From the NCBI GenBank assembly GCA_964502815.1, contig CAZCXV010000001.1:7907-71906 (forward strand): 64,000 nucleotides of DNA, given 5' to 3'. The notes beneath the pieces were generated by a model. That model did not search any database. It was not told the origin of the DNA and worked only from the letters and a program-made list of their open reading frames with translations. This stretch comes from an uncultured Gammaproteobacteria bacterium. GTDB lineage: Bacteria > Patescibacteriota > Microgenomatia > UBA8517. Below, piece by piece: positions 9,229 to 31,991 of this stretch (the stretch's first letter is position 1; each line of letters starts with the position of its first letter). The translations under genes and the position numbers were made by a program.

Positions 9229-9326
9229 ACTTACCTAACTAGGTAATAGTAATAGTCATTGTCACTATTAGCAATTCATATCGAATGTGAATCAATCCTG
9301 ATCTGAGCACAATTTTTTATCTAAAT

Positions 9327-11689: not shown

Positions 11690-12765
11690 ATGTTTTTAAT
11701 TGCCTTAAGAAATTCTTTTTTAAATCTTTCTTTAGAAAATCTCTTAGCGTTTTCTATTATAATCTTAACACTAAACTTATATTCGTGAAAAGAGTTTAGT
11801 GTTTTAATTAAAGCATTTTTTTCTTGTTTGTCAAAAAATAGTCCCGTTTTGCCTTCAATTATAGTGTCCAGTGCTCCCCCACTTTTGTAAGCAATAACTG
11901 GCTTGCCAAAAGTTTGGGCTTCCACTGCAGTTAAGCCAAAATCTTCATTTTGAGGAAAAATTAAGGCTTTACAGTTTTGATAATAGAAAGACAAATCCTC
12001 TTCTTCTACATAACCTGTAAAGTAAATATTGGATTTTGCCATATATTTTAGTCTCTCTTCTTGGCTTCCTGTACCAACAACCACTAGAGGCAGTTCTAAC
12101 TCATTAAATGCTTCAACTACTAAATCAACCTTTTTATAAGGGACAAGTCTGGAAACAACTAAAAAGTAGTCTTTTGGCACATCTGATGTTTTATTCTTTT
12201 CATCCGTTTTCAATCCTTCAACTGGAGGAAAAATTACTACCGAATCCCTGCCGTAATATTTTTTAGTTCTTTTCTGAACTTCTGTTGAAATTGCAATAAT
12301 TTTATCAGGTCTTGCAGCTGCAATTTTGTCCCATCTTTTTAGATAGTTAATTAACGGCCTGGTGACAACCTGCAGGGTCTCACCCTGCAGGTACTCATTG
12401 TAATGGCTCCACAAATATCTGGTTGGAGTAAGAAGATAGCATATATGCTTTGTTGGAGGTTTGGTGATTATACCTTTGGCAGCTTCTGAAGTAACCGAGA
12501 TTACTAAATCATATTGATCAAAATTGAACTGCTCAAAGGCAATTGGCATAAGCAGTGGATAAAACTCGTGCTTGTCTTTAGCGAAAGGAAAACGCTGTAA
12601 AAACGAAGTAAAGACTTTTGGAAATACTAAGGCCCATTTAGCCCTATCGGAATTATAAACAGAGGTGTAAAGAGGTGCGTCGGGAAACATATCATGCAAG
12701 GCAAGTAAAACTCTCTCCGCTCCACCCCATTTGTTTACCCGGTCATAGACTATTGATACCTTCAT
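11686..12765 (-). CDS. Glycosyltransferase family 4 (GT-B); carries one in-frame copy of the 23-bp palindrome
   Basis: C-terminal GT4 motif EDFGLTAVEAQTFGKPVIAYKSGGALDTI. The palindrome encodes YLQGETLQV. Confidence 0.85.
   Translation of the reverse strand: MKVSIVYDRVNKWGGAERVLLALHDMFPDAPLYTSVYNSDRAKWALVFPKVFTSFLQRFPFAKDKHEFYPLLMPIAFEQFNFDQYDLVISVTSEAAKGIITKPPTKHICYLLTPTRYLWSHYNEYLQGETLQVVTRPLINYLKRWDKIAAARPDKIIAISTEVQKRTKKYYGRDSVVIFPPVEGLKTDEKNKTSDVPKDYFLVVSRLVPYKKVDLVVEAFNELELPLVVVGTGSQEERLKYMAKSNIYFTGYVEEEDLSFYYQNCKALIFPQNEDFGLTAVEAQTFGKPVIAYKSGGALDTIIEGKTGLFFDKQEKNALIKTLNSFHEYKFSVKIIIENAKRFSKERFKKEFLKAIKNI
12369..12391. repeat. 23-bp perfect hairpin palindrome CCTGCAGGGT-CTC-ACCCTGCAGG, in frame inside GT4 gene 11686..12765 (copy 1 of 3)
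   Basis: Arms 10/10 complementary. GC-rich in an AT-rich background. Near-identical copies at 27870..27892 and 31526..31548. Confidence 0.85.
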
Positions 12766-13877
12766 GAAAGAACACTATTGTATACCTCCAAAGTTTCCTG
12801 AGCCATCTTTTTCCAGGAGTAATTACTTACAAACTTTTTGGCTTTTGCGATTATTTCTTTTCTTCTTGGCTCGCTCATTTCTTTGGCAATTTCCATTTTT
12901 CTGGCAATATCTGAAAAATCAAAAGGATTAAAGTAAATTGCATTGTCTTTATAAATTTCTTTGAAAACAGGAATTTCTGATGCTAAAAGTAAAGTTTCTG
13001 ATGTCATTGCTTCAAGTCCTTGGAGTCCAAAGCCTTCCATAATAGATGGATAAACAAAAGCAATCGAGTTTTTATAGAGCACTGCTATCTCTTCGTCTGG
13101 CACAAAACCAAGAAGCTTGACATTATCTTTGGCGTGCAAATCGCCTACTAATTTTTGCAGTCTTTCTAAAAAGACGTCTCTCGCGCCAGATATTGCCAAT
13201 GTACTTCGTGATTGGACAACTGCTTCAATTGCTCTTTTTAAGTTTTTGTGAGGATAGGCATTTCCGATATACAGGAAATATTTCCTTGGTTCAAGATTGT
13301 ACTTAGTCAGTATTTCCCTATCATTGTTTTTTTCTTTTATGCCAGGCAAATCAACGCCTTCGTAAGTAACAAACACTTTTTTGGGATCAAGTTTGTAAGT
13401 TTTTATGACATCTTCTTTTACAAAGTTTGAAGGAACAATAATTGCTGCAGCTTTTTTAACAGCTTCCAAAAATACTTTTTTGTAGCCAAGTCTTTTAAGA
13501 TAGTAAAATGCCGGGTTTAAAGTTGTCGCCTCAAGGCCTTTTTGCCGGTGCATGAGTAAATCATGAATTGTCACCACCAATTTCCCTTTAAACCTAATTG
13601 GGACATTGAAATGCAAAAAGTGGCTAAGATCTGGCTTTTCAGCCAAGATTATCTTTGGTAGTAACAGTTGTTCTCCCAATGAATAATGTTGAAAGTCAGC
13701 CAGTACTTTCTTAAAGTTTTTTGGTAAAACCAATTCTTCAAAGTATTTCTTCCTAAGAAGAAGTACATAGTCATTAGCTTTGTCTAATTTCGCAAGTTGG
13801 TCTATTAAGTTGACTGCATATCTACCAAGTCCAGCATTTTCAAGTCCATAGAGCCTGGCATCAATTAGGATCTTCAT
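12762..13877 (-). CDS. Glycosyltransferase family 4
   Basis: SIMEGFGLQGLEAM motif. 371 aa. Confidence 0.85.
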   Translation of the reverse strand: MKILIDARLYGLENAGLGRYAVNLIDQLAKLDKANDYVLLLRKKYFEELVLPKNFKKVLADFQHYSLGEQLLLPKIILAEKPDLSHFLHFNVPIRFKGKLVVTIHDLLMHRQKGLEATTLNPAFYYLKRLGYKKVFLEAVKKAAAIIVPSNFVKEDVIKTYKLDPKKVFVTYEGVDLPGIKEKNNDREILTKYNLEPRKYFLYIGNAYPHKNLKRAIEAVVQSRSTLAISGARDVFLERLQKLVGDLHAKDNVKLLGFVPDEEIAVLYKNSIAFVYPSIMEGFGLQGLEAMTSETLLLASEIPVFKEIYKDNAIYFNPFDFSDIARKMEIAKEMSEPRRKEIIAKAKKFVSNYSWKKMAQETLEVYNSVLS

Positions 13878-14767
13878 TTTACAATTATCCTCTTAATGTT
13901 TCTCACTATCTTCATTAGCCTTATTGCAAAAAACACCAAATAATTTAAAACTGCTGGATATTTGTCCCACAAAAACTTTCGGTAAAAAATAGCCATTGAT
14001 TCAACTCCTGTTCCGCTAAAAACATTCTTCACTTTCTTTTTGGTTTGTTTTTTAAGATGGATAATTGAAACTTTTGGAAAGTAAATTATTTTGTAGCCAG
14101 CTTGCTTTATTTTATATGAAAGGTCAATATCTTCCCCATCCAAGAAATATTCCTCACTAAACCAACCAACTTCATCAAGTACTTTTTTTGGCGCCATACA
14201 ATAAGCTCCCTGCAAAACATCTATCTCATGCGTGGTGTCAGCTGACAGATAGCCATACCAATATTTAGAGAAAGCTTTTGATTTTGGAAACAGTCTATCG
14301 AGTCCTGAAAAGTGAGTCAAGGCAACCCAAGGCGTAGGGAAAGATCTTCTAGCATCTTTATCTAAACTGCCATCGGGCAAGATTGTTTTACAGGTCAAGG
14401 CGCCAACATTCGGATGGTCTTCTAAATACTTAATGCTTTCTTTTAGGGTGTCTGGATTCATTAAGGTGTCGCTATTGAGAAACAAAATATATCTTCCAAT
14501 GCAGAAGTCTTTAGCAGCATTATTACCTTTGGCAAAACCCAGGTTTGCATTGTTTTTTACCAGCTTGATTTCTGGCTTGACAGTTTTTTCTATCAATTTT
14601 TCTACTTCTTCTATAGAGCCGTCTATCGAGCCATTGTCCACCAAAAGTACTTCAAAATTAAGCTCATCTTTGACTTTTATCAATGAATTCAGGCAGTTTA
14701 AAGTTACATCTTTAGTGTTGTAGTTTAAAACTATTACTGAAAGAGCTGGGTTGGATTTTTTTTCCAT
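13874..14767 (-). CDS. Glycosyltransferase family 2
   Basis: LSVIVLNYNTKDVTLNCLNSL...VDNGSIDGS and DxD-region motifs. Confidence 0.85.
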   Translation of the reverse strand: MEKKSNPALSVIVLNYNTKDVTLNCLNSLIKVKDELNFEVLLVDNGSIDGSIEEVEKLIEKTVKPEIKLVKNNANLGFAKGNNAAKDFCIGRYILFLNSDTLMNPDTLKESIKYLEDHPNVGALTCKTILPDGSLDKDARRSFPTPWVALTHFSGLDRLFPKSKAFSKYWYGYLSADTTHEIDVLQGAYCMAPKKVLDEVGWFSEEYFLDGEDIDLSYKIKQAGYKIIYFPKVSIIHLKKQTKKKVKNVFSGTGVESMAIFYRKFLWDKYPAVLNYLVFFAIRLMKIVRNIKRIIVK

Positions 14768-14781
14768 AAGCTTAAGGGTAA

Positions 14782-16002
14782 TTATTTCTTGTCTTTAGCT
14801 ATTTGTGCAATTTTTTTGACATCTTTATAAATGCTGTCATGCATCTCAACAATTGCCTTCCAATCAAATTTTTCTTTGACAAACTTTTGGCCTGCTTCCC
14901 CTATTTTTTTAGCTAGTTGTGGATTTTTAAGAAGAGAAATAGTTTTTCTTGCCAGTCCTTGCATACTATCTTCAATCAAAACATGTTTGCCATTTTCCAC
15001 TCCAAGGCCTGCAACCCCAGTAGAAGTTGAAACTGTGGGCAGTCCTGCAGCCATAGCCTCAAGAATCTTGAGTCTTGTTCCCCCTGAACCCCTAATTGGG
15101 GCAACCATGACATAGGCTCCTAAGTAAGCGTCTCTAGCCTCGGGGATATTTTCCGAAATTTCAATGTCACTTTCTCTATTGGCCATCTGCTTAATGCTTT
15201 CAGGAATCATTCTGCCAACAATCCACAATTTGGCGTGTTTGATTTCTTTGTGAACAACTGGCCAAACTTCACTAATAAGCAAATCTGCAGCCTCTCTATT
15301 TTGCATCCATTCAAAATTGGTTACCCCGTACATCACTCTTGGCGGATCGTATTTTTTCACTTCCTTTTCAGTGTAGTAAGCTGTATCTACCCCATTTGGA
15401 ATAACGCCAATTTCCTCTCCACCAACAAGTTCCTGCATAATAACTTTATCATCTGGTGAAACGGTAAAGAGTTTTGTCGCCTTTTTCCAAAAGTATATTT
15501 CCCAAAACTTGAGTTTTAAAACATCAATCATGAAAAAAGGCCTGAGGAAGGGGTTTACCTCATTTTTGACATGGTGTTCATAGACTTTATGCCAAATAGT
15601 TTGCTCTACTTGAATTGAAGGGACATCGGTCTTTGGAATATGGGGCATGACATAGAAAGCTTCGGCATGAATTAGATCATAATCCCCTTTTTCTAATTCT
15701 TTTTTAACAGCCCACCTTTCTTGAAAAGAAAAGTTGCGAATCAAAAGAAGAGGGAAGGGAGAAAAGACTGAAAGTAGGATATTCCTGGCTGTCCAAGGGG
15801 ATTTGGGACGCTTAAAAACCATTACTTTTTTACAGTATTTTTCGAGTTCTGGAATAAATCTTCTCTCAGATTCATCTTTAATAAGAGAAAAAAGGGTAAT
15901 TTTGTGCTCCTGGGAGAGAAACTTAACAATGTTGTACCACCTAGTTTGACCACCAGAGGTCTGGGTGTTAGGCAAGAATGGGACAAGCATCAGAATTTTC
16001 AT
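14782..16002 (-). CDS. Glycosyltransferase family 4
   Basis: GGTRLKILEAMAAGLPTVSTSTGVAGLGVENGKHVL. Confidence 0.85.
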   Translation of the reverse strand: MKILMLVPFLPNTQTSGGQTRWYNIVKFLSQEHKITLFSLIKDESERRFIPELEKYCKKVMVFKRPKSPWTARNILLSVFSPFPLLLIRNFSFQERWAVKKELEKGDYDLIHAEAFYVMPHIPKTDVPSIQVEQTIWHKVYEHHVKNEVNPFLRPFFMIDVLKLKFWEIYFWKKATKLFTVSPDDKVIMQELVGGEEIGVIPNGVDTAYYTEKEVKKYDPPRVMYGVTNFEWMQNREAADLLISEVWPVVHKEIKHAKLWIVGRMIPESIKQMANRESDIEISENIPEARDAYLGAYVMVAPIRGSGGTRLKILEAMAAGLPTVSTSTGVAGLGVENGKHVLIEDSMQGLARKTISLLKNPQLAKKIGEAGQKFVKEKFDWKAIVEMHDSIYKDVKKIAQIAKDKK

Positions 16003-16059
16003 GATTACCTTTAGTATAGCAAACAGAAGGCGATTTTCTGTGCTAAAATTTCAAACACT

Positions 16060-16341
16060 ATGTTATTTGAAAGACTGAAAGACCATATTGAAGAATTAAG
16101 ACAGATTAAGGAAAAATTGTATAAAAGCGGCAGAATTGATGTGAAACACCCTCTTTATGAAAAAAATTCCTACGTCTACATTAAATTGTTAAATGCCACA
16201 GATATGAGAGATGTCGTTGATGCCGGGATCTTAGAAGGGTTGGATCCTGATAAATTCATTACCGAGATTATAAAGAAAACCGGAAGATCAACCATAGAAT
16301 CCTTCGCCCAATACCCAGAGGAGTATGATTATGGCTACTAA
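16060..16341 (+). CDS. Hypothetical 93-aa soluble protein (plus-strand orphan inside minus-strand cluster)
   Basis: Intergenic ORF that does not overlap its neighbours. No recognisable domain. Confidence 0.4.
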   Translation: MLFERLKDHIEELRQIKEKLYKSGRIDVKHPLYEKNSYVYIKLLNATDMRDVVDAGILEGLDPDKFITEIIKKTGRSTIESFAQYPEEYDYGY

Positions 16342-16358
16342 AGTTCCTGCAAGGTAGC

Positions 16359-17900
16359 CTATTCTCGGGAAACTGGAAGATGTAAATCAATAACTATATA
16401 TTTATCGGTTTTTTCTATTGTTTTATATTTCTTCATTAAACTATTAGTGTCATTATCATAGTTTACCGACACATAGTAATCAGCTCCCCTGGCAATCATT
16501 TTTTCTACTGATTCATCAATCACTGGATAGCCATATCTATTTGTCTGGTAAAGAAAAGCTGTGTCCCCATTATAAGGTGCTATTATTACTGCATCCTTTG
16601 GAGTTAATCTCTGAGCTGCTTTACCTGCTTCGATTATTTCATAGTGATTTATTTTGTAATACTCTCTGGCTTGATAAAAACCCAAAAGAAGCATGAGAAA
16701 AATTACAAAGACAGATAGAAATCTAGAAATTGCCAGATTAAACTGCTTATTTGTCCAGAGTGATATCATGCCTTGAGCTAACAAGAGACATATTGAAGGG
16801 ACAATTAATATCTGGTAATAGTCATGCCTGACGCTGGCTGTTGCCACTATAGTGACATATAAAATGCTTCCAAAAAAGAAAATAATGTTAAAAAGATTAT
16901 TTTTCTTGGTCATTGCAAGACCAAGAGCAAAAGGAATAAGCCCCCAGATGCCAAGAATTAGTTTTCCAATTCTCTCGCCAAAAATCCAAAACCAAAAAGC
17001 TGGCCTGAACCTTATTTTGTCGCTATTGAAGGCCCAATCAAAATGCGGAATACCTTGGGGAAAATTATTAACCCAAATCCTCCAGGCAAAAAACGGCACA
17101 ATTGCCAAAAGGGCAAAGACAAAGATTTCAGTTTTTTTGTAAAGCCAAGCCAAACCATATTTATTTATTAGAAGATACAAAAACACAGGAGAGTAGAAAA
17201 AGACAAACGGTTTAATTAGAGTGGCCAAAGCAAAAAGAATCCCAGAAACAATTAAGGGTAGAATTTTTTCTTTGTCGATGTATCTTGAAAAGAAATACAA
17301 AGAAGACACCAAAAACATCACTCCAATTGGCTCGGGTAAAATTACCCTTGTAAAGTAAATGTTATAGGGAATAAAAAGATAGAAAAAAGAAGCCAGTATC
17401 CCTCCCCAATCATTAATGTATTTTTTACCAAGCAAATACAAAAAGAAAGCTGTGGTAAGCGCAGAAAAGATGGTCACCAATCTTCCCCAGACTGTAAAGG
17501 AATCTGCCTCAATAAAGACAACTGAAACTGGATTTTTCTTTTGTATTAGTAATAATTTGTTGAAAGAAAATTGTGGAAGTTTTTGAATATGGAAATTCTT
17601 TTCCAAAGCTGCATGAATGACATTATAAACAGGAAACTCAACCATCCTTAAACCGATCGGATTTAAAATTCCAGTTTGGATTCTTGAAACATCGTAATAT
17701 CTAGGAAGTAGGATATTTACTCCTTCATCCAGGTATATCCTTGAAACAGAGGCCGTGTCTGCTTGCCTCCAGGAGTGCCAATCGGCAATTGGGAAGTTTA
17801 TATGCCAAGTCCTTACTAAAAAACCAAATAGAAAAATAGTAATTAAGGTCGATGTCTGGAAAAACTTATTATTTATTATGTTTATCATTATTACTTCCAA
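16359..17900 (-). CDS. Polytopic membrane glycosyltransferase, GT-C fold (GT39/ArnT/PMT_2-like)
   Basis: About 12 predicted TM helices. N-terminal loop reads WHINFPIADWHSWRQADTASVSRIY, as in ArnT-like enzymes. Confidence 0.65.
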   Translation of the reverse strand: MEVIMINIINNKFFQTSTLITIFLFGFLVRTWHINFPIADWHSWRQADTASVSRIYLDEGVNILLPRYYDVSRIQTGILNPIGLRMVEFPVYNVIHAALEKNFHIQKLPQFSFNKLLLIQKKNPVSVVFIEADSFTVWGRLVTIFSALTTAFFLYLLGKKYINDWGGILASFFYLFIPYNIYFTRVILPEPIGVMFLVSSLYFFSRYIDKEKILPLIVSGILFALATLIKPFVFFYSPVFLYLLINKYGLAWLYKKTEIFVFALLAIVPFFAWRIWVNNFPQGIPHFDWAFNSDKIRFRPAFWFWIFGERIGKLILGIWGLIPFALGLAMTKKNNLFNIIFFFGSILYVTIVATASVRHDYYQILIVPSICLLLAQGMISLWTNKQFNLAISRFLSVFVIFLMLLLGFYQAREYYKINHYEIIEAGKAAQRLTPKDAVIIAPYNGDTAFLYQTNRYGYPVIDESVEKMIARGADYYVSVNYDNDTNSLMKKYKTIEKTDKYIVIDLHLPVSRE

Positions 17901-18904
17901 CCAAAAACCTCTCCCAAGTCAGCCTCCATATCCTTGACACTTGGATATCTATCGTGTGGACTAATTGCTAGAGCCTTATGTAATATATCAGAGAGTTTTT
18001 GCAGCTTTTCAGGATGAGAGTCAAAATAATTTCTGTAGTCTGAGCTTAAAGGAAATTGTCTGTCAATTCTTTCTTGAAAAATATCTCTGTGATCCTTTGC
18101 AGTTTGTCCTAACATACCAGAAAAAATATTAAATATCATAGTTCCGGTTGAATATACATCTGTTCTCGTAGAGAGATATCCATCGATTTGTTCAGGCGGA
18201 CAATACCATAAAGTAAACATCAAGCCTTCTTTTTTGATAGCATCTTCGTTACCTGGACTTGCCACCCCGAAATCTATTATCTTAACAACACCATATTTAT
18301 CAATCATTACATTTTGAGGTTTTAAATCTCCATGAATCACATTCTTTGAATTTATATAGGCAATTCCTGCCAATGCTTGTTTCAAGACGTTTCCTACTTC
18401 TTCAAAAGATCTGTTAAATACCATCCAATCAGCTAGAGTTTCTCCTTCAATCCATTCTGTAATCATGCATAATTTACCTTTACCTGTGATTGCAATATCA
18501 AAAACTTTGGCCACATTCGGGTGATTGAATCGTGCCATTATCCTAGCTTCAGCAACACTATCAATGGTCTTGTGTTGAACATACTTAGCAGCAATTCTAG
18601 TACCTGTTTTATTATCAAACATTTCCATAACACGACCTATTCCAGCTTTTGGTTCAATGCTTCCTGGAATTTGTGTATATCTTGGTTCATCGCCCAAACG
18701 AACCATTTTTACGAAGTTTTCTCTCTGTCTGTAAACGCGAGAGCCATCCGTCATATCAGTTAAAATCGTATATTTGTCAGTTGATCCATCGTTATATTTG
18801 GTTTCTGCTGTTTTCTCGGTGATATTCGAAAAATCTACAGGTTCGAGTTTAATATCATATAATCGAACTAAAGGCTTGCTAAGTATTTCTTGGTTATCAC
18901 TCAT
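17891..18904 (-). CDS. Hanks-type Ser/Thr protein kinase, soluble, non-RD (HGD catalytic loop)
   Basis: Motifs: lysine in RIAAKYV, catalytic loop VIHGDLKPQNV, DFG in IIDFGVA, CPPE (APE-like). No TM or PASTA domains. An N-terminal extension of about 80 aa. Confidence 0.85.
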   Translation of the reverse strand: MSDNQEILSKPLVRLYDIKLEPVDFSNITEKTAETKYNDGSTDKYTILTDMTDGSRVYRQRENFVKMVRLGDEPRYTQIPGSIEPKAGIGRVMEMFDNKTGTRIAAKYVQHKTIDSVAEARIMARFNHPNVAKVFDIAITGKGKLCMITEWIEGETLADWMVFNRSFEEVGNVLKQALAGIAYINSKNVIHGDLKPQNVMIDKYGVVKIIDFGVASPGNEDAIKKEGLMFTLWYCPPEQIDGYLSTRTDVYSTGTMIFNIFSGMLGQTAKDHRDIFQERIDRQFPLSSDYRNYFDSHPEKLQKLSDILHKALAISPHDRYPSVKDMEADLGEVFGWK

Positions 18905-21746: not shown

Positions 21747-21810
21747 AGCTAAATTATACTACAACTTCTGAATTTAACTTTTTGATTATTTTAGAATATA
21801 ATAGCTTTCC

Positions 21811-22905: not shown

Positions 22906-22917
22906 GCCAATTTTGAC

Positions 22918-23559
22918 TTATTGGAATAATCTTGCTCTTCCAAGTTTGTAGTGAAGGTCATTTAATTTTCTTTCCCCAATTTCTTTTGCTGGAACCCCGC
23001 CAACCATTTTAAAGTCTGGTACATTTTTTGTTACCACTGCCCCTGCTGCAACTATTGCCCCTTTGCCAATTCTTACTCCTGGAAGGATAATGCTTCTTGG
23101 CCCAAGAAACACATAGTCGCCAATTTCAACTGCTGCAGTTATTGCTTTAAAGGCTGCATCGTTCATGTCGTGTTCGGAGTTATAGATTAAAACCTGGGAG
23201 GCAATATCTACATGACTTCCTATAATTAGGTTGTCCCGGCCATCCAAAAAGACATTGTCGCCTACCATTGTATCTTGTCCAATTATTACTCCACTTGGGT
23301 CAAAGAATTTCGTCCCCATATGAATGGTTGTTCCTTTACCTATCTTTACTCCCGCCATTTGAAACACAATTTTTCGAAGTGGCCAGATGGCAACAGTATT
23401 ACTTACTAGGTGAATTACAAAAAGCTTAAAGTCTAAGTACCAATTATAAAATCTGACAAAGGCTTTCTTGAAGGCCACGGACAAAGAAAGCTCCCCGCCA
23501 TGTTTATCAGTAAAGACTATTCCCTTTTTGGTGAGATGAATATTTTCGGCGTATAACAT
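22918..23559 (-). CDS. Hexapeptide-repeat (LbH) sugar O-acetyltransferase, WcaF/WbbJ-like
   Basis: GDNVFLDGRDNLIIGSHVDIASQVLIYNSEHDMND...IGDYVFLGPRSIILPGVRIGKGAIVAAGAVV hexapeptide repeats. Confidence 0.8.
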   Translation of the reverse strand: MLYAENIHLTKKGIVFTDKHGGELSLSVAFKKAFVRFYNWYLDFKLFVIHLVSNTVAIWPLRKIVFQMAGVKIGKGTTIHMGTKFFDPSGVIIGQDTMVGDNVFLDGRDNLIIGSHVDIASQVLIYNSEHDMNDAAFKAITAAVEIGDYVFLGPRSIILPGVRIGKGAIVAAGAVVTKNVPDFKMVGGVPAKEIGERKLNDLHYKLGRARLFQ

Positions 23560-23563
23560 TTTT

Positions 23564-24697: not shown

Positions 24698-24741
24698 TTT
24701 TGAATTTTACCTTAGAAAACTTATGTACCCAAAACAAATAT

Positions 24742-25821
24742 TTAACGCCTACTTTCGAGATATACGGTTAATGTCATTTCCGCAGCCTTTTTCCAGCTAA
24801 AACGACTTGCTCTGGCCGTTGCTTTATCTATTAGACTCTTTCGCCTTCTTAACCCAGTCTTAATACCTTCGGAAATTGATTCTATTTCATATGGGTCAAC
24901 TAAGATTGCAGCATCCCCTGCTACCTCCGGCATACCAGAAGTATTTGAAGTAACAACTGGCACTCCAGCATTAAAAGCTTCAAGTATAGGAAGGCCAAAA
25001 CCTTCATATAAAGATGGGTAAACCATAAGTGTTGCGCCAGTTACTAGCGACCTGAATTCTTCATCTGTTACCCGTCCAGTAAAACGAATATTTCTTAAAT
25101 CCTTAAATTTTTCAACTGACCTACCGATCAGGACGAGTTTCAAGTCTTGACCTGCTGCCGCTTTTTCAAAAGCTTCAATAAGTCTGGTGGTATTTTTTCG
25201 CTGACCAACTCCTACTGTAACCAGATAATCGCCGTCAATGTTGTATTTTTTCTTTACTTGCCTAATTTCTTCCATCCCCGCTTTTTTAGTTATAATACTG
25301 GCCGCTTCTGGAATAACCCTAATTTTTTCTTCCTTGATGCCAAAGTCAATCAAGTCTTCCTGAGTTGCAAGTGAAGGAACAATTACCCTATCGACTTCTT
25401 TTTTCACCCAAGTAAGTCTTGCCTTGTGAGCCGAAACAATTCTTGGGTGAGTAAGTCTAGGAAATCTGAGTGGAGCCAAATCATGCACTGTAGTTACTTT
25501 AAAAGCTTTAGAAGGTGGTTGGGTCCAATCTGAAGAATGGAGAACGTCAACCTTGCCAATTAAGCGTTCAATCGGAAGTGTGTGTAGTCTATTCCACAAG
25601 AAATCTGCCAGGGTTGGGGCAATGGGGAAAACTTTAGTTTGACATTTTCCTTGAAATTGACCCAGCAAATTTTTTAATTCTCTTCCTCTTCTCAAAGATC
25701 CACCAAAAAGCAGATAATCGTTTTGTTGGTCAATTTCCAGCAATGCCTTAATTAGGTCTCTGGTGTAGACGGAAACGCCAGTGCCATACAGTAAGGCCGA
25801 GGTATCAATTGCGATTTTCAT
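24742..25821 (-). CDS. Glycosyltransferase family 4
   Basis: YEGFGLPILEAFNAGVPVVTSNTSGMPEVAGDAAILVDP. Confidence 0.85.
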   Translation of the reverse strand: MKIAIDTSALLYGTGVSVYTRDLIKALLEIDQQNDYLLFGGSLRRGRELKNLLGQFQGKCQTKVFPIAPTLADFLWNRLHTLPIERLIGKVDVLHSSDWTQPPSKAFKVTTVHDLAPLRFPRLTHPRIVSAHKARLTWVKKEVDRVIVPSLATQEDLIDFGIKEEKIRVIPEAASIITKKAGMEEIRQVKKKYNIDGDYLVTVGVGQRKNTTRLIEAFEKAAAGQDLKLVLIGRSVEKFKDLRNIRFTGRVTDEEFRSLVTGATLMVYPSLYEGFGLPILEAFNAGVPVVTSNTSGMPEVAGDAAILVDPYEIESISEGIKTGLRRRKSLIDKATARASRFSWKKAAEMTLTVYLESRR

Positions 25822-27193
25822 ATTGCCAAATAATTACTCCTTTAAAATCCTTTTCAAGGATCTTATTATACCCCTTCTCTTCAAGCTTTTTCCTGGCCAA
25901 ATCTGCAGGATCTGAAATATCCTGAACATATCTAACTAAGTAAACTATTTCATGGTCTTCTATCTCTTCTGACCTAATTACTTGCAAACCATCTTTGGCA
26001 TAATATTTAAAAGCTTCCTGCTGGGAATCTGCCGGAAAGACAACTGCAGTTTTTTTGTCTCTGGAAGCATCCAGAATAAAGTCTACTGCACTTCTCCAGT
26101 CCTCCCGGTGATATCTGTCATTTAAGAGGTATGTTAATGAAAATGTAATGTTTAAGGCGATTAGAATGAGAAACAGTATTGGAAAAACCGCCTCCTTCAC
26201 TTTCGTTAGTCCAATGGCTATTAGAAGATAGAAAGCAGGTAGGACAAAAATTAACCTAAAATAACTAAAGACTGAAACTTTAAAACCTAAAAGAAATGCT
26301 AAAGTTATTGGCACTAAAAGCCACAACCAGAAAAGCAGGTCTTTTTTGACAGCTTTAACACTCTTGGCATTTTGCAGAATTGCATAGCCAAAAGAAGCGG
26401 CTGCAAAAACTACAACCAAGGCATAGGAAAATTTGTTTGTAAAACTAAGTCTACCTATCAAAAACTTAGTTGGCACAAGTAGGAGTTCTTTCAAATTGGA
26501 TTTACCAAGAACTTGCCACCAAGCTTGAGAACTTGCTTGAACACTCAAGCCAGCACTAAGCTGGTGGGCAAAAGTTGGCGCCCAGACCGCAAAACCTATA
26601 GCCAAGGGAAAGTGGCTTAAAATTAGCTTGCCAAACCAAGGCAATTTTTTCTGATTAAATATCCCATACAACCAGAAAACAGGAATAATTAGTAGGGGTA
26701 AATAGTCGGTCGCGCCAACGAGCAAAAGTGCCAGGCTAAATAAGAGCCAATGAACAAATTTTTCTTTTTGGATGTTTTTTGCGAACAAAAAAACCGCCAA
26801 GGTTACCAAAAAAGTTTGCATCGAGTACATCCTGGCTTCCTGGGCGTAATAGATTAGAAGAGGCGCTGTAGCAGTAAGCAAAGCCGCTGCAATAGCCACA
26901 GTTTTGTCTTTATATAGTTTGCTTATCTGGTAAACCAATAGTATTGTTGCCAGCGAGAAAACAATTGACAGTGACCTGGCAGAAATTTCAGTTACACCGA
27001 AAGGAAGTGTCCAAACCTTTAAAGCTAAATAGTAAAGTGGCGGGTGAAAATCCCCTGGAGAAAATTTTGTTAGAATATCCAAAAAAGAAAAGTTCTTGGC
27101 AACTGTTGCCGAGGTTGCTTCATCCAACCAAAAAGATTGGTTTAGAGAAATTACTCTTAAGATAAGTCCGAGAAATAAAATTAGGTAAATCAT
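25805..27193 (-). CDS. Polytopic membrane glycosyltransferase, GT39/GT83 ArnT/PMT_2-like
   Basis: N-terminal signature LNQSFWLDEATSA...GDFHPPLYYLALKVW (DE..a and hPPLyy motifs). Many TM helices follow. Confidence 0.8.
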   Translation of the reverse strand: MIYLILFLGLILRVISLNQSFWLDEATSATVAKNFSFLDILTKFSPGDFHPPLYYLALKVWTLPFGVTEISARSLSIVFSLATILLVYQISKLYKDKTVAIAAALLTATAPLLIYYAQEARMYSMQTFLVTLAVFLFAKNIQKEKFVHWLLFSLALLLVGATDYLPLLIIPVFWLYGIFNQKKLPWFGKLILSHFPLAIGFAVWAPTFAHQLSAGLSVQASSQAWWQVLGKSNLKELLLVPTKFLIGRLSFTNKFSYALVVVFAAASFGYAILQNAKSVKAVKKDLLFWLWLLVPITLAFLLGFKVSVFSYFRLIFVLPAFYLLIAIGLTKVKEAVFPILFLILIALNITFSLTYLLNDRYHREDWRSAVDFILDASRDKKTAVVFPADSQQEAFKYYAKDGLQVIRSEEIEDHEIVYLVRYVQDISDPADLARKKLEEKGYNKILEKDFKGVIIWQYENRN

Positions 27194-28032
27194 TTGGAAA
27201 CTTTTGCCTGTAGGCTATATTCCATTATACCCAAAAAGCTGCCCATGTCTGAGATAATTTTGAAGGGCAGAAATGCAGGGAGGCTATAACTAAGTGCCAA
27301 TAAGATTCCCAAGACAAGAGAAGCAGGCAAACTTACCCTCACTAAAGCAATGAATGTTCCCAAAATACCCAGCTTATATTTTCTTTTAGCCATCCATTTA
27401 GATTGCGCAAAAACTTCCCTATAGGTGTCTGGGTTTTTGTGATAAAAAATGGCCCCTGGAGCATTAATTGCCATAACATTAAGTTTGTCAAAAAGAGAAT
27501 AATCGTCGGTGTAGCCCGCTTTCTCGTCAAAGCCACCTACTTTATCGAATTCCTTTGTTAAAATTGCCCGATATACTTTTTGTTGGTCTGGATAATTACT
27601 TGGATGCATTCTATCTTTCGGCAGTCTCCTATTTAAATTCCAGGCTACTGCTAGAGGATTGTCTTTATTTTCCAAATACTCTTCTTTGGAAAAAGTGCCA
27701 ATTATTTTCCCCTTTGTTATTGGTTCAATTAATTTTTTCAAAAAACCTTTGTCAAGAGTCATATCTGCATCTACAAAAACCAATATATCTCCCCGTGCTT
27801 GACTTGCTCCCAGGTTTCTAGCAGCTCCCGCTCCTTTATGACTTTGTTTAAAAATTATTAATTTCTTTCCCTGCAGGGTCTGACCCTGCAGGATAGATAA
27901 AGTGGAGTCTGTTGAACCATCATCAACAAAGATTATTTCAAAATCTGCAAGCGTTTGCTTACTCAAAGACTTCAAACAATTAAGGATTACTTTTTCTTCA
28001 TTGTAGATAGGAATAATAACTGAGACTTTCAT
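27190..28032 (-). CDS. Glycosyltransferase family 2 with C-terminal TM segments; carries one in-frame copy of the 23-bp palindrome
   Basis: MKVSVIIPIYNEEKVILNCLKSLSKQT...FEIIFVDDGSTDST. The palindrome encodes ILQGQTLQG. Confidence 0.85.
   Translation of the reverse strand: MKVSVIIPIYNEEKVILNCLKSLSKQTLADFEIIFVDDGSTDSTLSILQGQTLQGKKLIIFKQSHKGAGAARNLGASQARGDILVFVDADMTLDKGFLKKLIEPITKGKIIGTFSKEEYLENKDNPLAVAWNLNRRLPKDRMHPSNYPDQQKVYRAILTKEFDKVGGFDEKAGYTDDYSLFDKLNVMAINAPGAIFYHKNPDTYREVFAQSKWMAKRKYKLGILGTFIALVRVSLPASLVLGILLALSYSLPAFLPFKIISDMGSFLGIMEYSLQAKVSK
27870..27892. repeat. 23-bp perfect hairpin palindrome CCTGCAGGGT-CTG-ACCCTGCAGG in frame inside GT2 gene 27190..28032 (copy 2 of 3)
   Basis: Arms 10/10 complementary. 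The loop differs from copy 1 by one base. Confidence 0.85.
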
Positions 28033-29063
28033 AGCATTAAGTTTCTAAACAACTCTTCATACTGTCTTGCAATTTTTTCCCAGTCAAACTTTTCAGCTTG
28101 TCTTCTGGGTTTTTCTGCCCATTTAATACTCAAGGCCTTTTTTAAAGCTTCAGCCAGTTCTTGAGAATTCTCTGGATTCTTGGTCAAGACGCCAGCGTCT
28201 CCGACAATCTCTCTCCTTTGTTCATCGTCTCTGGCTACAACTGGAAGTCCTGAGGCCATAGCTTCGGCGTAAACAATGCCAAAAGCTTCGCTTTCATCAG
28301 AAGTCAGGACAAAAACATCGGCACAGCCATACACTCCAGGCATTTGCTCGTGAGGAAAAGTTTTGAGATCGAATCTATCTTTCAATAAGCTTCTTCCAAG
28401 AAAATTTATCTCCTCTCTCAAATAACCATCTCCTATTACCAATAAACTAGCATTTTCCATTTCTTTAACCGCCTTAATTACCAAATCAATATTCTTACTT
28501 TTAGTCAAAGCCGAGACACACAAGACTATAGGTTTAGGTAAACTTAAACTATGGGCTGTACATTGGGGGTTAAACTTTTTTAGGTCCACTCCGTTCGGAA
28601 TATACATTGACTTGACCAAAGGGTTGACCTTCCTGGCCCAAGCTGAGGCTTTAGAAGAAATACCTACAAATACGTTTGGAAAAGTAAGAATATTAAATCG
28701 GTCATCCCAGCCAATACCTGATTGGCCTGAGATTATCACTTTTCCTCCATAGACCCAAGTTATAAGTCTCACAATAACAGACTGCCAACCTCCATTTAGA
28801 GGAATGAGAATATCGTATTTCTTTCGCCAAATAATAGGTATTTGTCTAAGAGTAAAAAGAAAAATTGCCAAACCAGTTGGATCCAAAAAAAATCTCCACA
28901 AAATTGGCCATCTGGCAAAAGCCGATTTACCCCCTGCAATTACTTCAACATCGTATTTTTGGGAAAGCCTCACTGAAAGTTCCTCTATAAAAGTCTCTGC
29001 ACCCCTACCCACTCTCCCTTGATAAATATTCAAGAAGGCTATTTTTAGTCTTTTTTGATCCAT
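28029..29063 (-). CDS. Glycosyltransferase family 4
   Basis: GT-B architecture. SDESEAFGIVYAEAMASGLPVVARDDEQRREIVGDAGVL. Confidence 0.8.
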   Translation of the reverse strand: MDQKRLKIAFLNIYQGRVGRGAETFIEELSVRLSQKYDVEVIAGGKSAFARWPILWRFFLDPTGLAIFLFTLRQIPIIWRKKYDILIPLNGGWQSVIVRLITWVYGGKVIISGQSGIGWDDRFNILTFPNVFVGISSKASAWARKVNPLVKSMYIPNGVDLKKFNPQCTAHSLSLPKPIVLCVSALTKSKNIDLVIKAVKEMENASLLVIGDGYLREEINFLGRSLLKDRFDLKTFPHEQMPGVYGCADVFVLTSDESEAFGIVYAEAMASGLPVVARDDEQRREIVGDAGVLTKNPENSQELAEALKKALSIKWAEKPRRQAEKFDWEKIARQYEELFRNLML

Positions 29064-30412
29064 TCACTAACATTATCGCTTACTTTCTCATTAAAAGTAT
29101 AGTTTTCAACTATCCAATCGATTATCTCTTTTGGTTGATAACTAGCAAGATTATACCAATTGCCCTGTTGGGGAGTTTGCCAGTAAATATAGTCTGGTGG
29201 ATTTTCTCCCCACTTTGAAATTATTTTCTCCTGCATGCCTGGAATTTCTAAGTACCAGCCAAAATTATCAGTCCAAGGCTTGGAAGGAAGGGAATTTGAA
29301 TAGGCATACAGTCCTGAGTGCGGGCCAAGCAAATACAAGCTTTTGCCTTTAAGTTTCTGTGCCAAATTAATATCGGTCTTACCCCAAAATCTGGCTTCTT
29401 TTTGCCAATTTACTGAAACTATTGGTCTGACAATAACAATGCCTACAGCCAAACCCACAAATAGAAAAATTCTAAGCTGGCTAAGTTTTTTATTATAAAA
29501 ACTCAGTAGGTAGCCAAAAATAATTGCAATTAAAGCTATTGCCAGTTGGAAATGAAAAAAAGAGAATCTAGGATAGACCATAATGAAAGAAACCAACAAA
29601 AAGCTAAATAATAATGCAAACTTGGTATCTTTCAATATACTGATTTTCCTTAATGTCAATAATAGTATTGGGCCAAGAAGAGTCATGAGAATTCTCCTTT
29701 GACCAGTGTCTAGATTCATTTGTACATAATCTGGATATTTACTCCAGAAAGTAAAAGGGTAAACCAAATTCCAATTAAGAAAATCTAAAAACTGATTTGT
29801 GGTAAAAAGCCAAGCCAAAAAACCCAAACCCAAAATTAATCCTGGAGCTAAAAAGTGAGCTAGGCTTTTAAGTTTTCTGTCTCGATATATTATATATAGT
29901 ATTGCTACTATCACACAAAGGACAGTTGTTTGTTTGATAAATACAGCTAAAGTGAAAAACAGGCCAGCTAAGATGGTGTTTTTAATAGTTTTATCTGCTA
30001 ACAAAAAATAAATTCCTGCAAGTATTGGTGTAACAATAGCCAGATCAAACCACAACATGTTGCCCTCCAAGAACGGCTGGACTAAGACATATAAAACAAC
30101 CGAGGCTAAGGCTGCACTGTTATTCCTGGTAAGTTTATTTAAAATTAAGTAAATGAGTATGTCGTTTAAAACAAGAAGCAGCCAAGTAAATATTTTTAGA
30201 ACAATTAGCTTAGCGCCAAAAACTTTAAACACCAAAGCCAAAGTTGCAGTTAAAAGCGGTGGATATGGATGAATAAAATCTGAGTAAAGCTTAAAACCAT
30301 TATTGACTAGATATGGGTAACTGATCATTTCTGGCCAAACAGTGAATTGGAGGTTAATCAAAAAGAATAAATGCAAGCCAACGAGTAAAAATAGTAATAC
30401 AGACTTCTTCAT
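29045..30412 (-). CDS. Polytopic membrane protein, probable GT-C glycosyltransferase (PMT_2/GT39-like)
   Basis: About 12 TM helices. N-terminal LYSDFIHPYPPLLTATLALVFKVFG resembles the hPPL loop of GT39/83 enzymes. Confidence 0.55.
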   Translation of the reverse strand: MKKSVLLFLLVGLHLFFLINLQFTVWPEMISYPYLVNNGFKLYSDFIHPYPPLLTATLALVFKVFGAKLIVLKIFTWLLLVLNDILIYLILNKLTRNNSAALASVVLYVLVQPFLEGNMLWFDLAIVTPILAGIYFLLADKTIKNTILAGLFFTLAVFIKQTTVLCVIVAILYIIYRDRKLKSLAHFLAPGLILGLGFLAWLFTTNQFLDFLNWNLVYPFTFWSKYPDYVQMNLDTGQRRILMTLLGPILLLTLRKISILKDTKFALLFSFLLVSFIMVYPRFSFFHFQLAIALIAIIFGYLLSFYNKKLSQLRIFLFVGLAVGIVIVRPIVSVNWQKEARFWGKTDINLAQKLKGKSLYLLGPHSGLYAYSNSLPSKPWTDNFGWYLEIPGMQEKIISKWGENPPDYIYWQTPQQGNWYNLASYQPKEIIDWIVENYTFNEKVSDNVSEWIKKD

Positions 30413-31224
30413 TTTCTTCCAATCATGCTCATACTATCTCCCCTATTTAGGAGTGTTGCAATTAAATCATATGGAAAATCAAAAACTGTGGTCACAAATC
30501 TTTTCTTTAATCCAGTTAAGGATTCATGCAATTCTTCAAGTGGATTTGCAAATTCAAACATTCCCGATCTGGATTCAAAGTGCACTACTTCAAAACCGGC
30601 TTTGACAAACATTTTTGTTAGCGACTGCTTGGTAAACTGGAAATTGTGTTCAAGTGGCAAAAGGTATTGCCAATATTTTCCCAAGATTCGTGAAGCCAAA
30701 CTGTCAAAGTTTGGCACATCAATCAACAGTAGTCCACCTTTTTCGAGCAAGCTGTGGGCTTTCTTTAACACCAAAAGGGGGTTTTCTAAATGCTCTAGCG
30801 TGTGATTCATGACAATAAGATCAAATTTGGTTCGGAAGTTGACCTTTTCAAATACCGTCTGAAAAACTTTGTGACCTTTGTCTATTGCAAACTCGGCATT
30901 TTCAGAAGGTTCAACTCCCCAAGTTTCGAAGCCTTCACTTTTGAAAATATCAAGCATTACTCCATTTGAACAACCAATTTCTAAAACCTTGCCTGCCCTC
31001 TCGATATATTTTTTTATGATATTTACTCTTTTTTGGAAAATATTTTTGAAATGTTGCTCCAATTTTTTATAATCTTCATCCCGGTGGTAAAAATCATAAC
31101 TCACGTTTTCTACTTCTCTGTCTATTTTTACCAAGCCACATTTTTTGCATTTCAAGGCTTTCCAATTCTTGCCTTGAAACAATTCCTGAAAGTTACTACT
31201 GTTACACAAAATACATTTTGTCAT
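30409..31224 (-). CDS. Class I SAM-dependent methyltransferase with N-terminal CxxC...CxxC zinc ribbon
   Basis: CILCNSSNF...CKKCGL zinc ribbon, then VLEIGCSNGVMLD (motif I) and LIVMNHTLEHL. Confidence 0.8.
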   Translation of the reverse strand: MTKCILCNSSNFQELFQGKNWKALKCKKCGLVKIDREVENVSYDFYHRDEDYKKLEQHFKNIFQKRVNIIKKYIERAGKVLEIGCSNGVMLDIFKSEGFETWGVEPSENAEFAIDKGHKVFQTVFEKVNFRTKFDLIVMNHTLEHLENPLLVLKKAHSLLEKGGLLLIDVPNFDSLASRILGKYWQYLLPLEHNFQFTKQSLTKMFVKAGFEVVHFESRSGMFEFANPLEELHESLTGLKKRFVTTVFDFPYDLIATLLNRGDSMSMIGRK

Positions 31225-31991
31225 ATAATCCTTCTTTTCATTTTCTTAATTGGTGTCTGCAAAAATGCCTGTAATTTATACTGCCAGATCATTGGTTTCC
31301 AAGGATTTAATATTAATTCTGGCTTATCAACAAAAAATACTTCTGGATAGAAATAATCCAGGGGCAACTGGTTTCCAATTTCATACTTAATCTTTCGTTC
31401 GACTTTGACTGATCTTTGTAAAAAGCTTGCATGTAGGTAAAAATTGTCACTAAATGAAATTCTTTCCCTGGGAAATTCCTGTACTTTTATCCCATTTAAG
31501 ACATAAGCCTCGGTTGGATACACTCCCTGTAGGGTAAGACCCTGCAGGTTTTTAATGAAGCGGATGTTATAGTGGCCAATTCGATCATGAATTCTATACT
31601 TTCCAGACGACTTAGGCAAAATATGGTACATATCCCCAATAAGAACAGTGTTTGGGTTAATTACCAAATCAAATTTGTCACCCTCGCTTCTTATTTTTTC
31701 TGTCTGGGATTTAATTTGGTCTCGGTGCCAAATTTCATCCCCATCGTGGATAAAGATCCAGTCAGCTTCAGTTTGATCAAGCATCTTTTGTCTAACAACT
31801 GCCACATCCCCTTGCGCTCCTTTTGTCAATTTTATTTTTGGACTGTTAATCGATTCAATAATTTTCACAGTGTTATCGATGCTTTGATTATCCCAAACCA
31901 GAATTTCATCAACATAGTCAATTATCGAGTTTAGTGAGAACCAAATAAAATTCTCTTCATTTTTAACTAACATATGACAAGTTATTTTCAT
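31221..31991 (-). CDS. GT2-like nucleotide-diphospho-sugar transferase (Glyco_tranf_2_4-like); carries one in-frame degenerate copy of the palindrome
   Basis: HMLVKNEENFIWFSLNSIIDYVDEILVWDNQSIDNT...DWIFIHDGDE. The palindrome encodes NLQGLTLQG. Confidence 0.6.
   Translation of the reverse strand: MKITCHMLVKNEENFIWFSLNSIIDYVDEILVWDNQSIDNTVKIIESINSPKIKLTKGAQGDVAVVRQKMLDQTEADWIFIHDGDEIWHRDQIKSQTEKIRSEGDKFDLVINPNTVLIGDMYHILPKSSGKYRIHDRIGHYNIRFIKNLQGLTLQGVYPTEAYVLNGIKVQEFPRERISFSDNFYLHASFLQRSVKVERKIKYEIGNQLPLDYFYPEVFFVDKPELILNPWKPMIWQYKLQAFLQTPIKKMKRRII
31526..31548. repeat. 23-bp hairpin palindrome CCTGTAGGGT-AAG-ACCCTGCAGG (one arm mismatch) in frame inside gene 31221..31991 (copy 3 of 3)
   Basis: 9 of 10 arm positions complementary. 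Divergent loop. Confidence 0.8.

Follow-up and report, generated by a model that had tools for sequence, protein, structure and literature searches.

Repetitive extragenic palindromic (REP) sequences and their REP-associated tyrosine transposases (RAYTs) belong to the small number of mobile-DNA families for which vertical persistence over very long times is assumed. In the described systems, such as E. coli TnpA-REP with its REP/BIME sequences and the REPINs of Pseudomonas, short GC-rich hairpin repeats of the 20-40 bp class occur in many dispersed copies and bracket the gene of an IS200-like Y1/HUH transposase. Binding and cleavage of the single-stranded repeat are known only for E. coli TnpA-REP, which needs single-stranded DNA, cleaves both sides of the REP at a mere CT dinucleotide and carries out strand transfer (PMC3333891). 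REP sub-families with alternative complementary stem residues, REPs inside genes and one REP family landing inside pre-existing small palindromes are on record (PMC3733652). It is also already known that intragenic REPs and the Rickettsia palindromic elements sit in genes as insertions, described as adding 10-80 residues, with RPE-1 being about 100-150 bp long (PMC3733652). We describe here three palindromes of 23-25 bp within three glycosyltransferase genes of a 64,000-nucleotide stretch of contig CAZCXV010000001.1 (the window), the homologues of which point to Microgenomates/Woesebacteria-like bacteria of the Candidate Phyla Radiation (CPR). These palindromes probably belong to a REP-type hairpin family whose partner in related Patescibacteria is a RAYT-like Y1/HUH single-stranded DNA transposase, and which would spread and be renewed by overwriting resident sequence without change of length. 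The family assignment rests on tool results, while the overwriting mechanism is what we infer from them. The palindromes and their host genes are:

12368..12392, no strand assigned: REP-type palindrome copy 1, A-CCTGCAGGGT-CTC-ACCCTGCAGG-T, perfect 11-bp stem with a 3-nt loop (core 12369-12391 as first read)
27870..27892, no strand assigned: REP-type palindrome copy 2, CCTGCAGGGT-CTG-ACCCTGCAGG, perfect 10-bp stem
31526..31548, no strand assigned: REP-type palindrome copy 3, CCTGTAGGGT-AAG-ACCCTGCAGG, slightly decayed, one mismatch
11686..12765, minus strand: host gene 1, GT4-family glycosyltransferase, 359 amino acids (Pfam Glycos_transf_1, 1.7e-32)
27190..28032, minus strand: host gene 2, GT2-family glycosyltransferase, 280 amino acids (Pfam Glycos_transf_2, 1.7e-35)
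31221..31991, minus strand: host gene 3, GT2-like glycosyltransferase, 256 amino acids (Pfam Glycos_transf_2, 1.2e-13)

The three sequences at 12369, 27870 and 31526, their place in glycosyltransferase reading frames and the common frame LQGxTLQ were seen exactly as an initial annotation of this DNA had described them. Its wording of perfect palindromes holds for copies 1 and 2 (the stem of copy 1 is really 11 bp long), but copy 3 carries one mismatch, T.G on the plus strand and C.A in the mRNA sense. Copy 1 codes for Y-LQGETLQ-V (residues 124-132 of the GT4 protein), copy 2 for LQGQTLQ (residues 49-55 of the GT2 protein, in a length-variable linker between DDGSTD and KQxHKGAGAARN) and copy 3 for LQGLTLQ (residues 149-155 of the GT2-like protein). 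The consensus of the three sites is CCTG[C/T]AGGGT-N3-ACCCTGCAGG, and a search of the window for CCTGCAGGGT-N3-ACCCTGCAGG with up to three mismatches returned exactly three matches, against 0.00 expected from 100 dinucleotide-preserving shuffles. Stem G+C is 70% in a window of 36%. Folding of the mRNA, also proposed in that annotation, gave -23.3, -20.6 and -13.9 kcal/mol for the sense strands of copies 1 to 3 (z-scores -3.9, -4.4 and -2.0), and copy 1 is the most stable 31-nt window of the GT4 gene (-20.2 versus a gene mean of -2.3). The GT2-site palindrome is also present in the independent sister-strain assembly L050 and the GT2-like-site palindrome in L133 (L numbers denote retrieved contig loci of other genomes or metagenomes that were compared with the window), hence the palindromes are not assembly artefacts; together with the shuffles this rules out a chance or artefact origin. 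The window contains no tRNA or tmRNA genes and no Rfam 15 match at the gathering threshold, so that neither a tRNA-like element nor a known RNA family was found. A literature search with the palindrome sequence itself returned only primers and cloning sites. Unpaired solo 10-mer stem arms are absent from the window. A single shorter half-site, possibly a remnant of the family although its membership is uncertain, is:

52841..52849, no strand assigned: solitary half-site CCTGCAGGG without partner arm (about 0.1 such 9-mers expected by composition, as we estimate)

Exact-pattern scans yielded 40 stretches from genomes and 85 from metagenomes. One conserved high-GC betaproteobacterial gene (NYLQGDTLQD) was set aside, as were high-GC singletons in large genomes, whose number is about what chance predicts for a 20-mer in 596 Gb. 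This left 54 distinct perfect sites with identical 20 stem bases, in CPR-type contigs of 30-52% G+C. The Beckwithbacteria metagenome-assembled genome (MAG) PCSQ01 holds eight perfect copies on six contigs, the Patescibacteria MAG JBBTRT01 five and CAXBYZ01 three, and locus L008 has at least five copies in 7.2 kb (one perfect, four with one mismatch). About 24 of the 54 sites lie inside long open reading frames, the others being intergenic, often directly after a stop codon. Among the intragenic sites at least 15 are read as LQGxTLQ and eight as PAGxxPAG; the Cys/Arg frame is practically unused. A methyltransferase of two genomes (proteins about 45% identical) has the palindrome directly ahead of motif I, at matching codons. 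The two copies agree in all 20 stem bases and have the loop in opposite orientation (CCA versus TGG), and 8 of 24 downstream bases differ. Either orientation does yield the same peptide, as the initial annotation had remarked, and loops of both orientations are found among the copies. Upstream of the methyltransferase palindrome in L004 (5430-5456), seven extra residues, LPAGKAD, are coded by CTGCCTGCCGGCAAGGCAGAC, which contains a CTGCC-GGCAA-GGCAG hairpin and may be a decayed neighbouring copy. Six contigs titled 'uncultured Pseudomonadales bacterium' (L001, L008, L010, L012, L033 and L034; 38-48% G+C) carry the palindrome; L033 matches the groundwater contigs L078 and L101 (sample names with '01um') over the flanks compared, and the Pseudomonadales label of the six looks doubtful. 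Further hairpin families with the same outer bases, CCTGCGAGGA-GTA-TCCTCGCAGG and CTGCGAAGA-CAG-TCTTCGCAG, share contigs with the master palindrome (L001 4014-4036, L010 4030-4050, L069 4719-4739 and 4802-4822).

The candidate partner emerges from locus L031, where four palindrome copies lie within 700 bp at one open reading frame of 216 amino acids (2250-2900). One copy stands 21 nt before the start, one straight after the stop and two in frame inside the gene (2399-2421 and 2688-2710); the spacing is irregular (193-289 bp) and the intervals make up one gene, which dismisses a CRISPR or TIGR-like array. The protein carries the motifs YHLYNRG, NHFHLL and YIHRNP of Y1/HUH transposases of the RAYT kind and matches Pfam Y1_Tnp with 41 bits (homologues 32-44 bits, cut-off 23). 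Using it as tblastn query, we found homologues of 46-61% identity in L004, L006/72/79/91, L066, L038/111/124, L088, L008 and L108; the homologues represent eight distinct palindrome-bearing loci, including the Beckwithbacteria MAG and a 'Pseudomonadales'-labelled MAG, and the proteins are 215-229 amino acids long. In 8/8 loci the gene is bracketed on both sides by the palindrome or by a variant with one to three differing bases, the upstream copy lying 3-95 nt ahead of the start and the downstream one either within the last codons or 0-10 nt past the stop. All eight proteins have the PNHFH(L/I)L HUH motif and the catalytic Tyr in YIHRNP (YIHRQA in L108). A gene that is bracketed by the palindrome and also contains it in eight loci corresponds to the REPtron arrangement that defines REP-RAYT systems (PMC3333891, PMC3733652). 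Altogether, 12 of the 54 distinct sites lie within 200 bp of or inside a RAYT homologue, where by our estimate about 0.5 would be expected, such genes taking up roughly 1% of the sequence. The initial annotation had favoured a DNA-level repeat of the mobile-element type over a protein motif and had listed a target hairpin for a site-specific nuclease or recombinase among its alternatives; the multiple copies in other Patescibacteria and the bracketed transposase genes bear out the former, and the latter essentially fits a RAYT-like Y1/HUH enzyme.

Internal copies in the RAYT-like genes keep to two recurrent positions, one behind YLKxYL and the other directly behind the catalytic YIHRNP, and proteins with such copies are no longer than paralogues without them. 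They were seen in L031, L004, L006, L008, L038, L088 and L108, and at the second position the first CCT of the palindrome doubles as the conserved Pro codon of YIHRNP. The internal palindromes may serve autoregulation, or the gene may simply be the nearest target. The paralogous Y1 genes found in these genomes have other palindromes, peculiar to them, on both sides (L072 6547-7131; L131 8699-9406). The L072 gene, also seen at L079 3385-3969, is a second Y1/RAYT paralogue of Beckwithbacteria bracketed by AATATTCCACCCCGGGGTGGAATATT (a related copy lies at L066 12325-12348), indicating several REP-RAYT pairs in one genome. In L131 (8611-9480) a Y1_Tnp paralogue (8699-9406, minus strand) is flanked by CACCC-TCA-GGGTG and CACCC-TAA-GGGTG and follows directly on the remnant of a GT4 N-terminus (MKIAIVYDRVNKWGGAERVLLALHEMF, 8611-8690); it seems that an IS200-like element interrupted a glycosyltransferase paralogue just upstream of the L131 GT4 orthologue. 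With hairpins of its own (CACCC-TNA-GGGTG), this gene was rejected as encoding the cognate enzyme.

A second line of evidence concerns the way in which copies sit in their host genes. The initial annotation had assumed an in-frame insertion of eight to nine residues with a target-site duplication, tolerated as an extra surface loop like the inserting elements of Rickettsia or the Correia-like repeats. The alignments do not support an insertion. Flanking direct repeats are missing at all three sites, and the unit is only 23-25 bp long. The GT4 protein aligns without a gap at the palindrome to 120 orthologues (59-67% identity), all of the same length at the site, so that YL-QGETL-QV in the window stands opposite YF-KGSTF-KG, YF-KNPLL-K and similar stretches. 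The GT2-like protein is likewise ungapped against 120 orthologues; NLQGLTLQGV aligns to the widely conserved K-TEGLHVEG-I or TPGLHVEG, and the palindrome takes the place of TEGLHVEG codon for codon. In the GT2 protein the copy lies in the variable linker and brings no net gain compared to orthologues of the same length. Together with sites I and II of the RAYT-like proteins, five tested protein sites are without length gain. Hence, the palindromes appear to have overwritten coding stretches without lengthening the proteins. In an AlphaFold2 model of the GT2-like protein (overall predicted local distance difference test score, pLDDT, 94.7) residues 148-157 form a turn and a beta-strand at pLDDT 93-98, suggesting that structured residues were replaced and no loop was added. 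In the GT4 model (overall pLDDT 93, about 80 locally) residues 124-132 lead from the last part of a short helix through a three-residue turn into the first part of a long one.

Relatives at the orthologous sites help to describe how copies come and change. In the sister strain L133 (94% identity) the same codons of the GT2-like gene are occupied by a perfect CCTGCAGGGT-CTC-ACCCTGCAGG, indicating that copy 3 of the window has since acquired two substitutions. The next relative, L134 (56% identity), reads AAC CTT CCA GAA CTA CAC ATA CGG GGA at these codons, without a hairpin, at the same length and with 10 of 27 bases different; AACCT and GGGA are common at the borders. This comparison implies that the copy arose as a same-length patch of about ten substitutions. 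At the GT2 site the same palindrome is found in L050, and L134 has CCTTCAGGGT-CTC-ACCCTGAAGG (15835-15857), at the same codon position as copy 2. The stem at the GT4 site is ACCTGCAGGGT-gag-ACCCTGCAGGT in the window, TACCTTCAGGGT-gag-ACCCTGAAGGTA in L129, where G>T is matched by C>A at the cost of a Q>K exchange, CTTGCAGGGT-ggc-ACCCTGCAAG in L130, TTTAAAGGT-tca-ACCTTTAAA in L131 and CTTTAAAGG-aacaa-CCTTTAAAG in L132. No other 31-nt segment comes close to this hairpin in stability in the genes of the window, L129 and L130 (-17 to -20 versus means near -2 kcal/mol). In a neighbour-joining tree with the motif masked, LQG-type GT4 orthologues are interspersed with FKG types, suggesting that the site acquired the hairpin repeatedly and not in one ancient event.

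Changes within the stems tend to keep the pairing. We collected all sequences with up to four stem differences from the master, pairing not being required. Among variants with exactly two changes, five of nine distinct ones are fully compensated, compared to about 2% that we estimate by chance; in one four-change variant the changes form two compensated pairs, and a single mismatch is found in 16 copies. Compensated stems occur also among the GT4 orthologues (CCTTCAGGGT/ACCCTGAAGG, the one that costs Q>K, and CTTGCAGGGT/ACCCTGCAAG). In the genome from which the overlapping loci L129 and L134 derive, CCTTCAGGGT/ACCCTGAAGG stands at both the GT4 and the GT2 site, while the window has CCTGCAGGGT/ACCCTGCAGG at both. 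One compensated variant common to two loci of one genome argues for copies that evolve in concert.

How such copies might be made can be pictured by analogy with E. coli TnpA-REP (PMC3333891) and with the REP family found in pre-existing palindromes (PMC3733652). The hairpin would extrude in single-stranded DNA, on the lagging-strand template or in a transcription bubble, and be bound by a RAYT acting in trans from elsewhere in the genome. The enzyme would then cleave on both sides and transfer strands, so that the donor hairpin is written over a resident one, or over a target of weak similarity, by way of a few bases of border microhomology, such as AACCT...GGGA at the GT2-like site. Selection would keep only those in-frame, length-neutral events that code for a tolerated LQGxTLQ or PAGxxPAG. 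Repeated overwriting of existing copies could lead to persistence at orthologous sites, flipped loops and concerted evolution, and intramolecular template switching may add to correction from arm to arm. The general form of this proposal, that REPs propagate by RAYT-catalysed length-neutral overwriting (a cassette exchange between hairpins or onto weakly similar targets) and not by insertion, is tentative and we regard it as rather doubtful. The copies in the window are most likely passengers, although an mRNA hairpin of about -20 kcal/mol may have side effects on expression.

Several observations weigh against this picture. Length-neutral overwriting has never been demonstrated for any RAYT, and classical insertion of the IS200/IS605 type would add length. 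The stems are perfect and the master has GCAG instead of GTAG or GATG, while E. coli TnpA-REP requires a stem mismatch and the tag. No RAYT homologue was found in the 64-kb window by tblastn with the L031 protein. The sole NCBIfam match of the RAYT-like proteins is REP_Tyr_transpos (NF047646) at 32-40 bits, below the curated cut-off of 80, and a comparison with solved structures gave no sequence match. The census loci were all retrieved with the palindrome itself, which biases copy numbers and proportions. At the GT4 site, the AT-rich FKGxTFKG hairpins are weak (-8 to -9 kcal/mol), are not the best window of their gene and could partly be a by-product of TTT/AAA codons, and the orthologue L135 has no significant hairpin. 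The notion of the GT4 hairpin as a universally conserved structure is thus only partly true, strong in LQG types and weak in FKG types.

Compared to the described REP-RAYT systems, the family shares the dispersed short GC-rich hairpins, with 23-25 bp inside the known size class, a transposase gene standing between copies of its own repeat, sub-families that differ by compensated stem residues and more than one RAYT-palindrome pair per genome (the L072 and L131 paralogues). The departures, as far as sequence comparison can tell, appear to be the following. About half of the copies are intragenic and translated under a frame filter, unlike the classically extragenic REPs, and copies occur even inside the transposase gene, beside the catalytic motif. 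Stems are perfect, with no required mismatch and no conserved GTAG/GATG tag; the master has GCAG inside the stem, and GTAG is found only in variants (window copy 3, L053, L057 and L089) and once 5' of an L008 copy. Doublets of the REPIN or BIME type were not seen here. Lineages with RAYTs of only 46-61% identity have one and the same stem, and the copies replace resident sequence without added length. Our best reading of these sequences is a REP-RAYT system in CPR bacteria whose REPs live largely inside genes, with the LQG frame preferred over PAG and the Cys/Arg frame avoided.

Other systems resemble the family in part. Intragenic REPs and Rickettsia palindromic elements (RPE-1, RPE-4/6 and the GTAG REPs of Opitutus terrae) also lie in frame in unrelated functional genes with an apparently tolerated peptide (PMC3733652). 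In contrast, the unit here is far shorter, brings no net gain at the five tested sites and has once replaced part of a conserved beta-hairpin. Rickettsia palindromic elements and miniature inverted-repeat transposable elements of the Correia type are about 100-155 bp long and either add residues (RPE) or have terminal inverted repeats and a TA duplication (Correia); neither holds here. IS200/IS605 elements (TnpA Y1 with subterminal hairpins) share the Pfam Y1_Tnp superfamily, the recognition of hairpins in single-stranded DNA and the lack of a target-site duplication. The repeat described here, however, is not the end of a gene-carrying transposon, since solo hairpins are dispersed on their own, and the two flanking hairpins are identical perfect palindromes instead of distinct left and right ends. 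The NTS/dRS3 repeats of Neisseria are dispersed hairpins that also flank the gene of a single-stranded DNA-specific enzyme recognising them, SsnA, and cluster at surface-structure genes; SsnA has a GIY-YIG and not an HUH fold, and NTS, which is almost wholly confined to intergenic DNA, has a flank that is oriented and non-palindromic (PMC11893778).

Among the alternatives, a host regulatory function survives best. The hairpin could be a cis-acting RNA element, the stem of which is read by an RNA-binding protein or RNase in a polycistronic glycan-cluster mRNA, co-regulating the three glycosyltransferases; the pairing would be kept by selection, and all sites of a genome would co-vary with the factor. 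All three copies lie in same-strand glycosyltransferase genes of one cluster, in three lineages no local structure of the GT4 mRNA approaches the hairpin in stability, compensated changes are seen, one of them at the cost of an amino-acid change, a genome-specific variant is common to the GT4 and GT2 sites, and the orthologue L135 has a G.U pair in sense orientation. Nevertheless, the window contains mostly glycosyltransferase genes, which makes three such matches unsurprising, and the palindrome also occurs in unrelated genes (methyltransferase, transposase and others) and intergenic DNA of other genomes, in two reading frames, and brackets RAYT genes. Copy 3 of the window has decayed to C.A in the mRNA sense while that of the sister strain is still perfect, new copies are single-step patches of about ten substitutions and therefore beyond the reach of stepwise selection, and there is no Rfam family. 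We consider regulation as the primary role unlikely. It is compatible with the REP assignment, because REPs can be co-opted, but nothing observed requires a host regulatory role.

Quasi-palindromes could also maintain themselves without any transposase, if intramolecular template switching copies one arm from the other and rare ectopic switches seed new copies. Template switching is known to create and repair hairpins, and it would account for perfect stems, compensated changes, the flipped loop at an orthologous site and length-neutral patches with border microhomology. It leaves unexplained why one 20-base stem is found across lineages with RAYTs only 46-61% identical, why the RAYT gene is bracketed in 8/8 loci and why the same variant stands at two loci of one genome. 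As a sufficient cause it seems improbable to us, while it may well act alongside the transposase.

Two inverted arms of 8-10 bp around a short variable spacer are reminiscent of a double-stranded site for a dimeric DNA-binding protein or a site-specific recombinase, for example one that would phase-vary the glycan cluster through inversion or deletion between sites inside genes, and symmetric half-site changes would follow a change in dimer specificity. Five independent assemblies of a two-copy locus and the sister-strain contigs of the window are all collinear, though, and no inversion alleles or other alternative arrangements were seen among these independent contigs, so an inversion switch was rejected. 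Recombination between same-strand genes would not yield in-frame products, 20 of 20 specified bases at more than 50 sites are unlike operators, and the associated gene encodes an HUH enzyme for single-stranded DNA and not a recombinase or helix-turn-helix protein. This explanation is very improbable.

There is next to no chance, finally, that the repeat is a conserved protein motif LQGxTLQ, a cluster of restriction sites or a DNA-uptake sequence: GT4 orthologues do carry LQGxTLQ or FKGxTFKG at the same position, the master holds two SbfI/PstI sites and uptake sequences accumulate length-neutrally in preferred frames, but the three host proteins are not homologous at the palindrome positions, the element is elsewhere read as PAGxxPAG or intergenic, codons are identical or compensated and not free, the variant CCTTCAGG/CCTGAAGG loses the restriction sites and keeps the pairing, and the window has no unpaired 10-mer copies. 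The initial annotation had taken the same peptide at the same position with unrelated codons as the mark of an ancestral motif; the peptide is indeed shared by orthologues, while the codons are the same or compensated. Its idea of a restriction or uptake word, and likewise a parS-like word, fails on the lack of solo half-sites in the window and on the functional-looking compensated variant CCTTCAGGGT/ACCCTGAAGG, which is without PstI/SbfI sites. Uptake signal and DNA uptake sequences (USS/DUS) and the cyanobacterial HIP1 are similar to the palindrome in being over-represented short words that accumulate in genes length-neutrally with a frame bias set by the peptide. They act as single short words and conserve sequence, in contrast to a paired hairpin whose pairing is kept by compensated changes and which is associated with a transposase gene.

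The REP-RAYT assignment extends the range of these systems to CPR bacteria (Patescibacteria), for which we found no earlier report; a literature search linking RAYT with CPR lineages gave a single co-mention, an archaeal locus. In genomes with almost no intergenic space the family moves into coding sequence under a visible peptide filter, in which LQG and PAG are used and Cys/Arg is not. If overwriting is correct, a selfish hairpin family could live in essential genes of ultra-compact CPR genomes, rewriting seven to eight codons at once, and hairpins would recur at the same orthologous sites, flip their loop and evolve in concert per genome. This would amount to a transposase-driven gene conversion, which has not been described for any REP/RAYT or IS200/IS605 element, and to a new route by which a transposase edits protein sequence without disruption. 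The enzyme would be predicted to cleave on two sides and to exchange strands between hairpins, and L134 compared with the window and L133 offers natural before/after pairs of copy gain. For annotation this means that repeat DNA, and not functional residues, may lie behind short GC-rich 'motifs' of CPR proteins.

The palindromes lie in an envelope-glycan cluster (MraW, RecO, DUF4012, Bac_transf, ManC, GT4, GT2, PMT_2 and Wzy) that is conserved and syntenic with L126-L135, the neighbourhood of the GT4 gene being a Microgenomates cluster syntenic with L129-L135; orthologues of host gene 2 sit in Woesebacteria/Microgenomates MAGs. Between DUF4012 and Bac_transf, which are directly adjacent in the syntenic loci L129-L135, the window has a 947-amino-acid open reading frame, which combines an SH3 domain with a Tox-REase-9 nuclease-toxin domain at the C-terminus, and a 207-amino-acid one without Pfam match (6385-9950). 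A polymorphic-toxin cassette seems to have entered the glycan cluster here.

The linker of the GT2 protein is variable also in genomes with other sequences at the palindrome position. Orthologues of 27190-28032 have in-frame tandem heptanucleotides there, (AATTTCC)x4.6 with 100% match exactly at this position in L126 (10148-10179) and a (CAAATTA)-type x4.7 repeat in L128 (2623-2655). Many of the 120 GT2 orthologues show a seven-residue periodicity at this place (ISNFQFP-ISNFQLL, EIRSK-KSEIRKL and others), the heptamer differing by lineage. In L127 (gene 660-1538, around codons 55-70) an (AATTTTC) heptamer tract is interrupted by GCGCCGTCGCCAAAGCGGCTATGGCGCGTCGGCGAC, an imperfect GC-rich hairpin of 36 nt through which the protein gains 12 residues. 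This is thus a different GC-rich hairpin at the same hotspot, and a true insertion. The linker may be a hypervariable or contingency-type hotspot within a glycosyltransferase.

Long perfect hairpins of other sequence (10-13-bp stems) are present in coding genes of the glycan clusters in L127 (3595-3623), L132 (10564-10591) and L129 (12249-12272). Perfect hairpins with stems of at least 9 bp are 2-9 times commoner than in shuffles in most of these related loci, while two loci have none. The window itself has further perfect hairpins with stems of 9-11 bp at 45522-45547, 33418-33443 and 45085-45105, the sequences of which are unrelated to the palindrome family. Among the window hairpins, GTTTTCTTTTC-CAAA-GAAAAGAAAAC lies in the gap between the open reading frames 44493-45413 and 45579-45974 and is terminator-like, and GGAATAGAAT-CAAAAT-ATTCTATTCC lies within the open reading frame 33252-35855.

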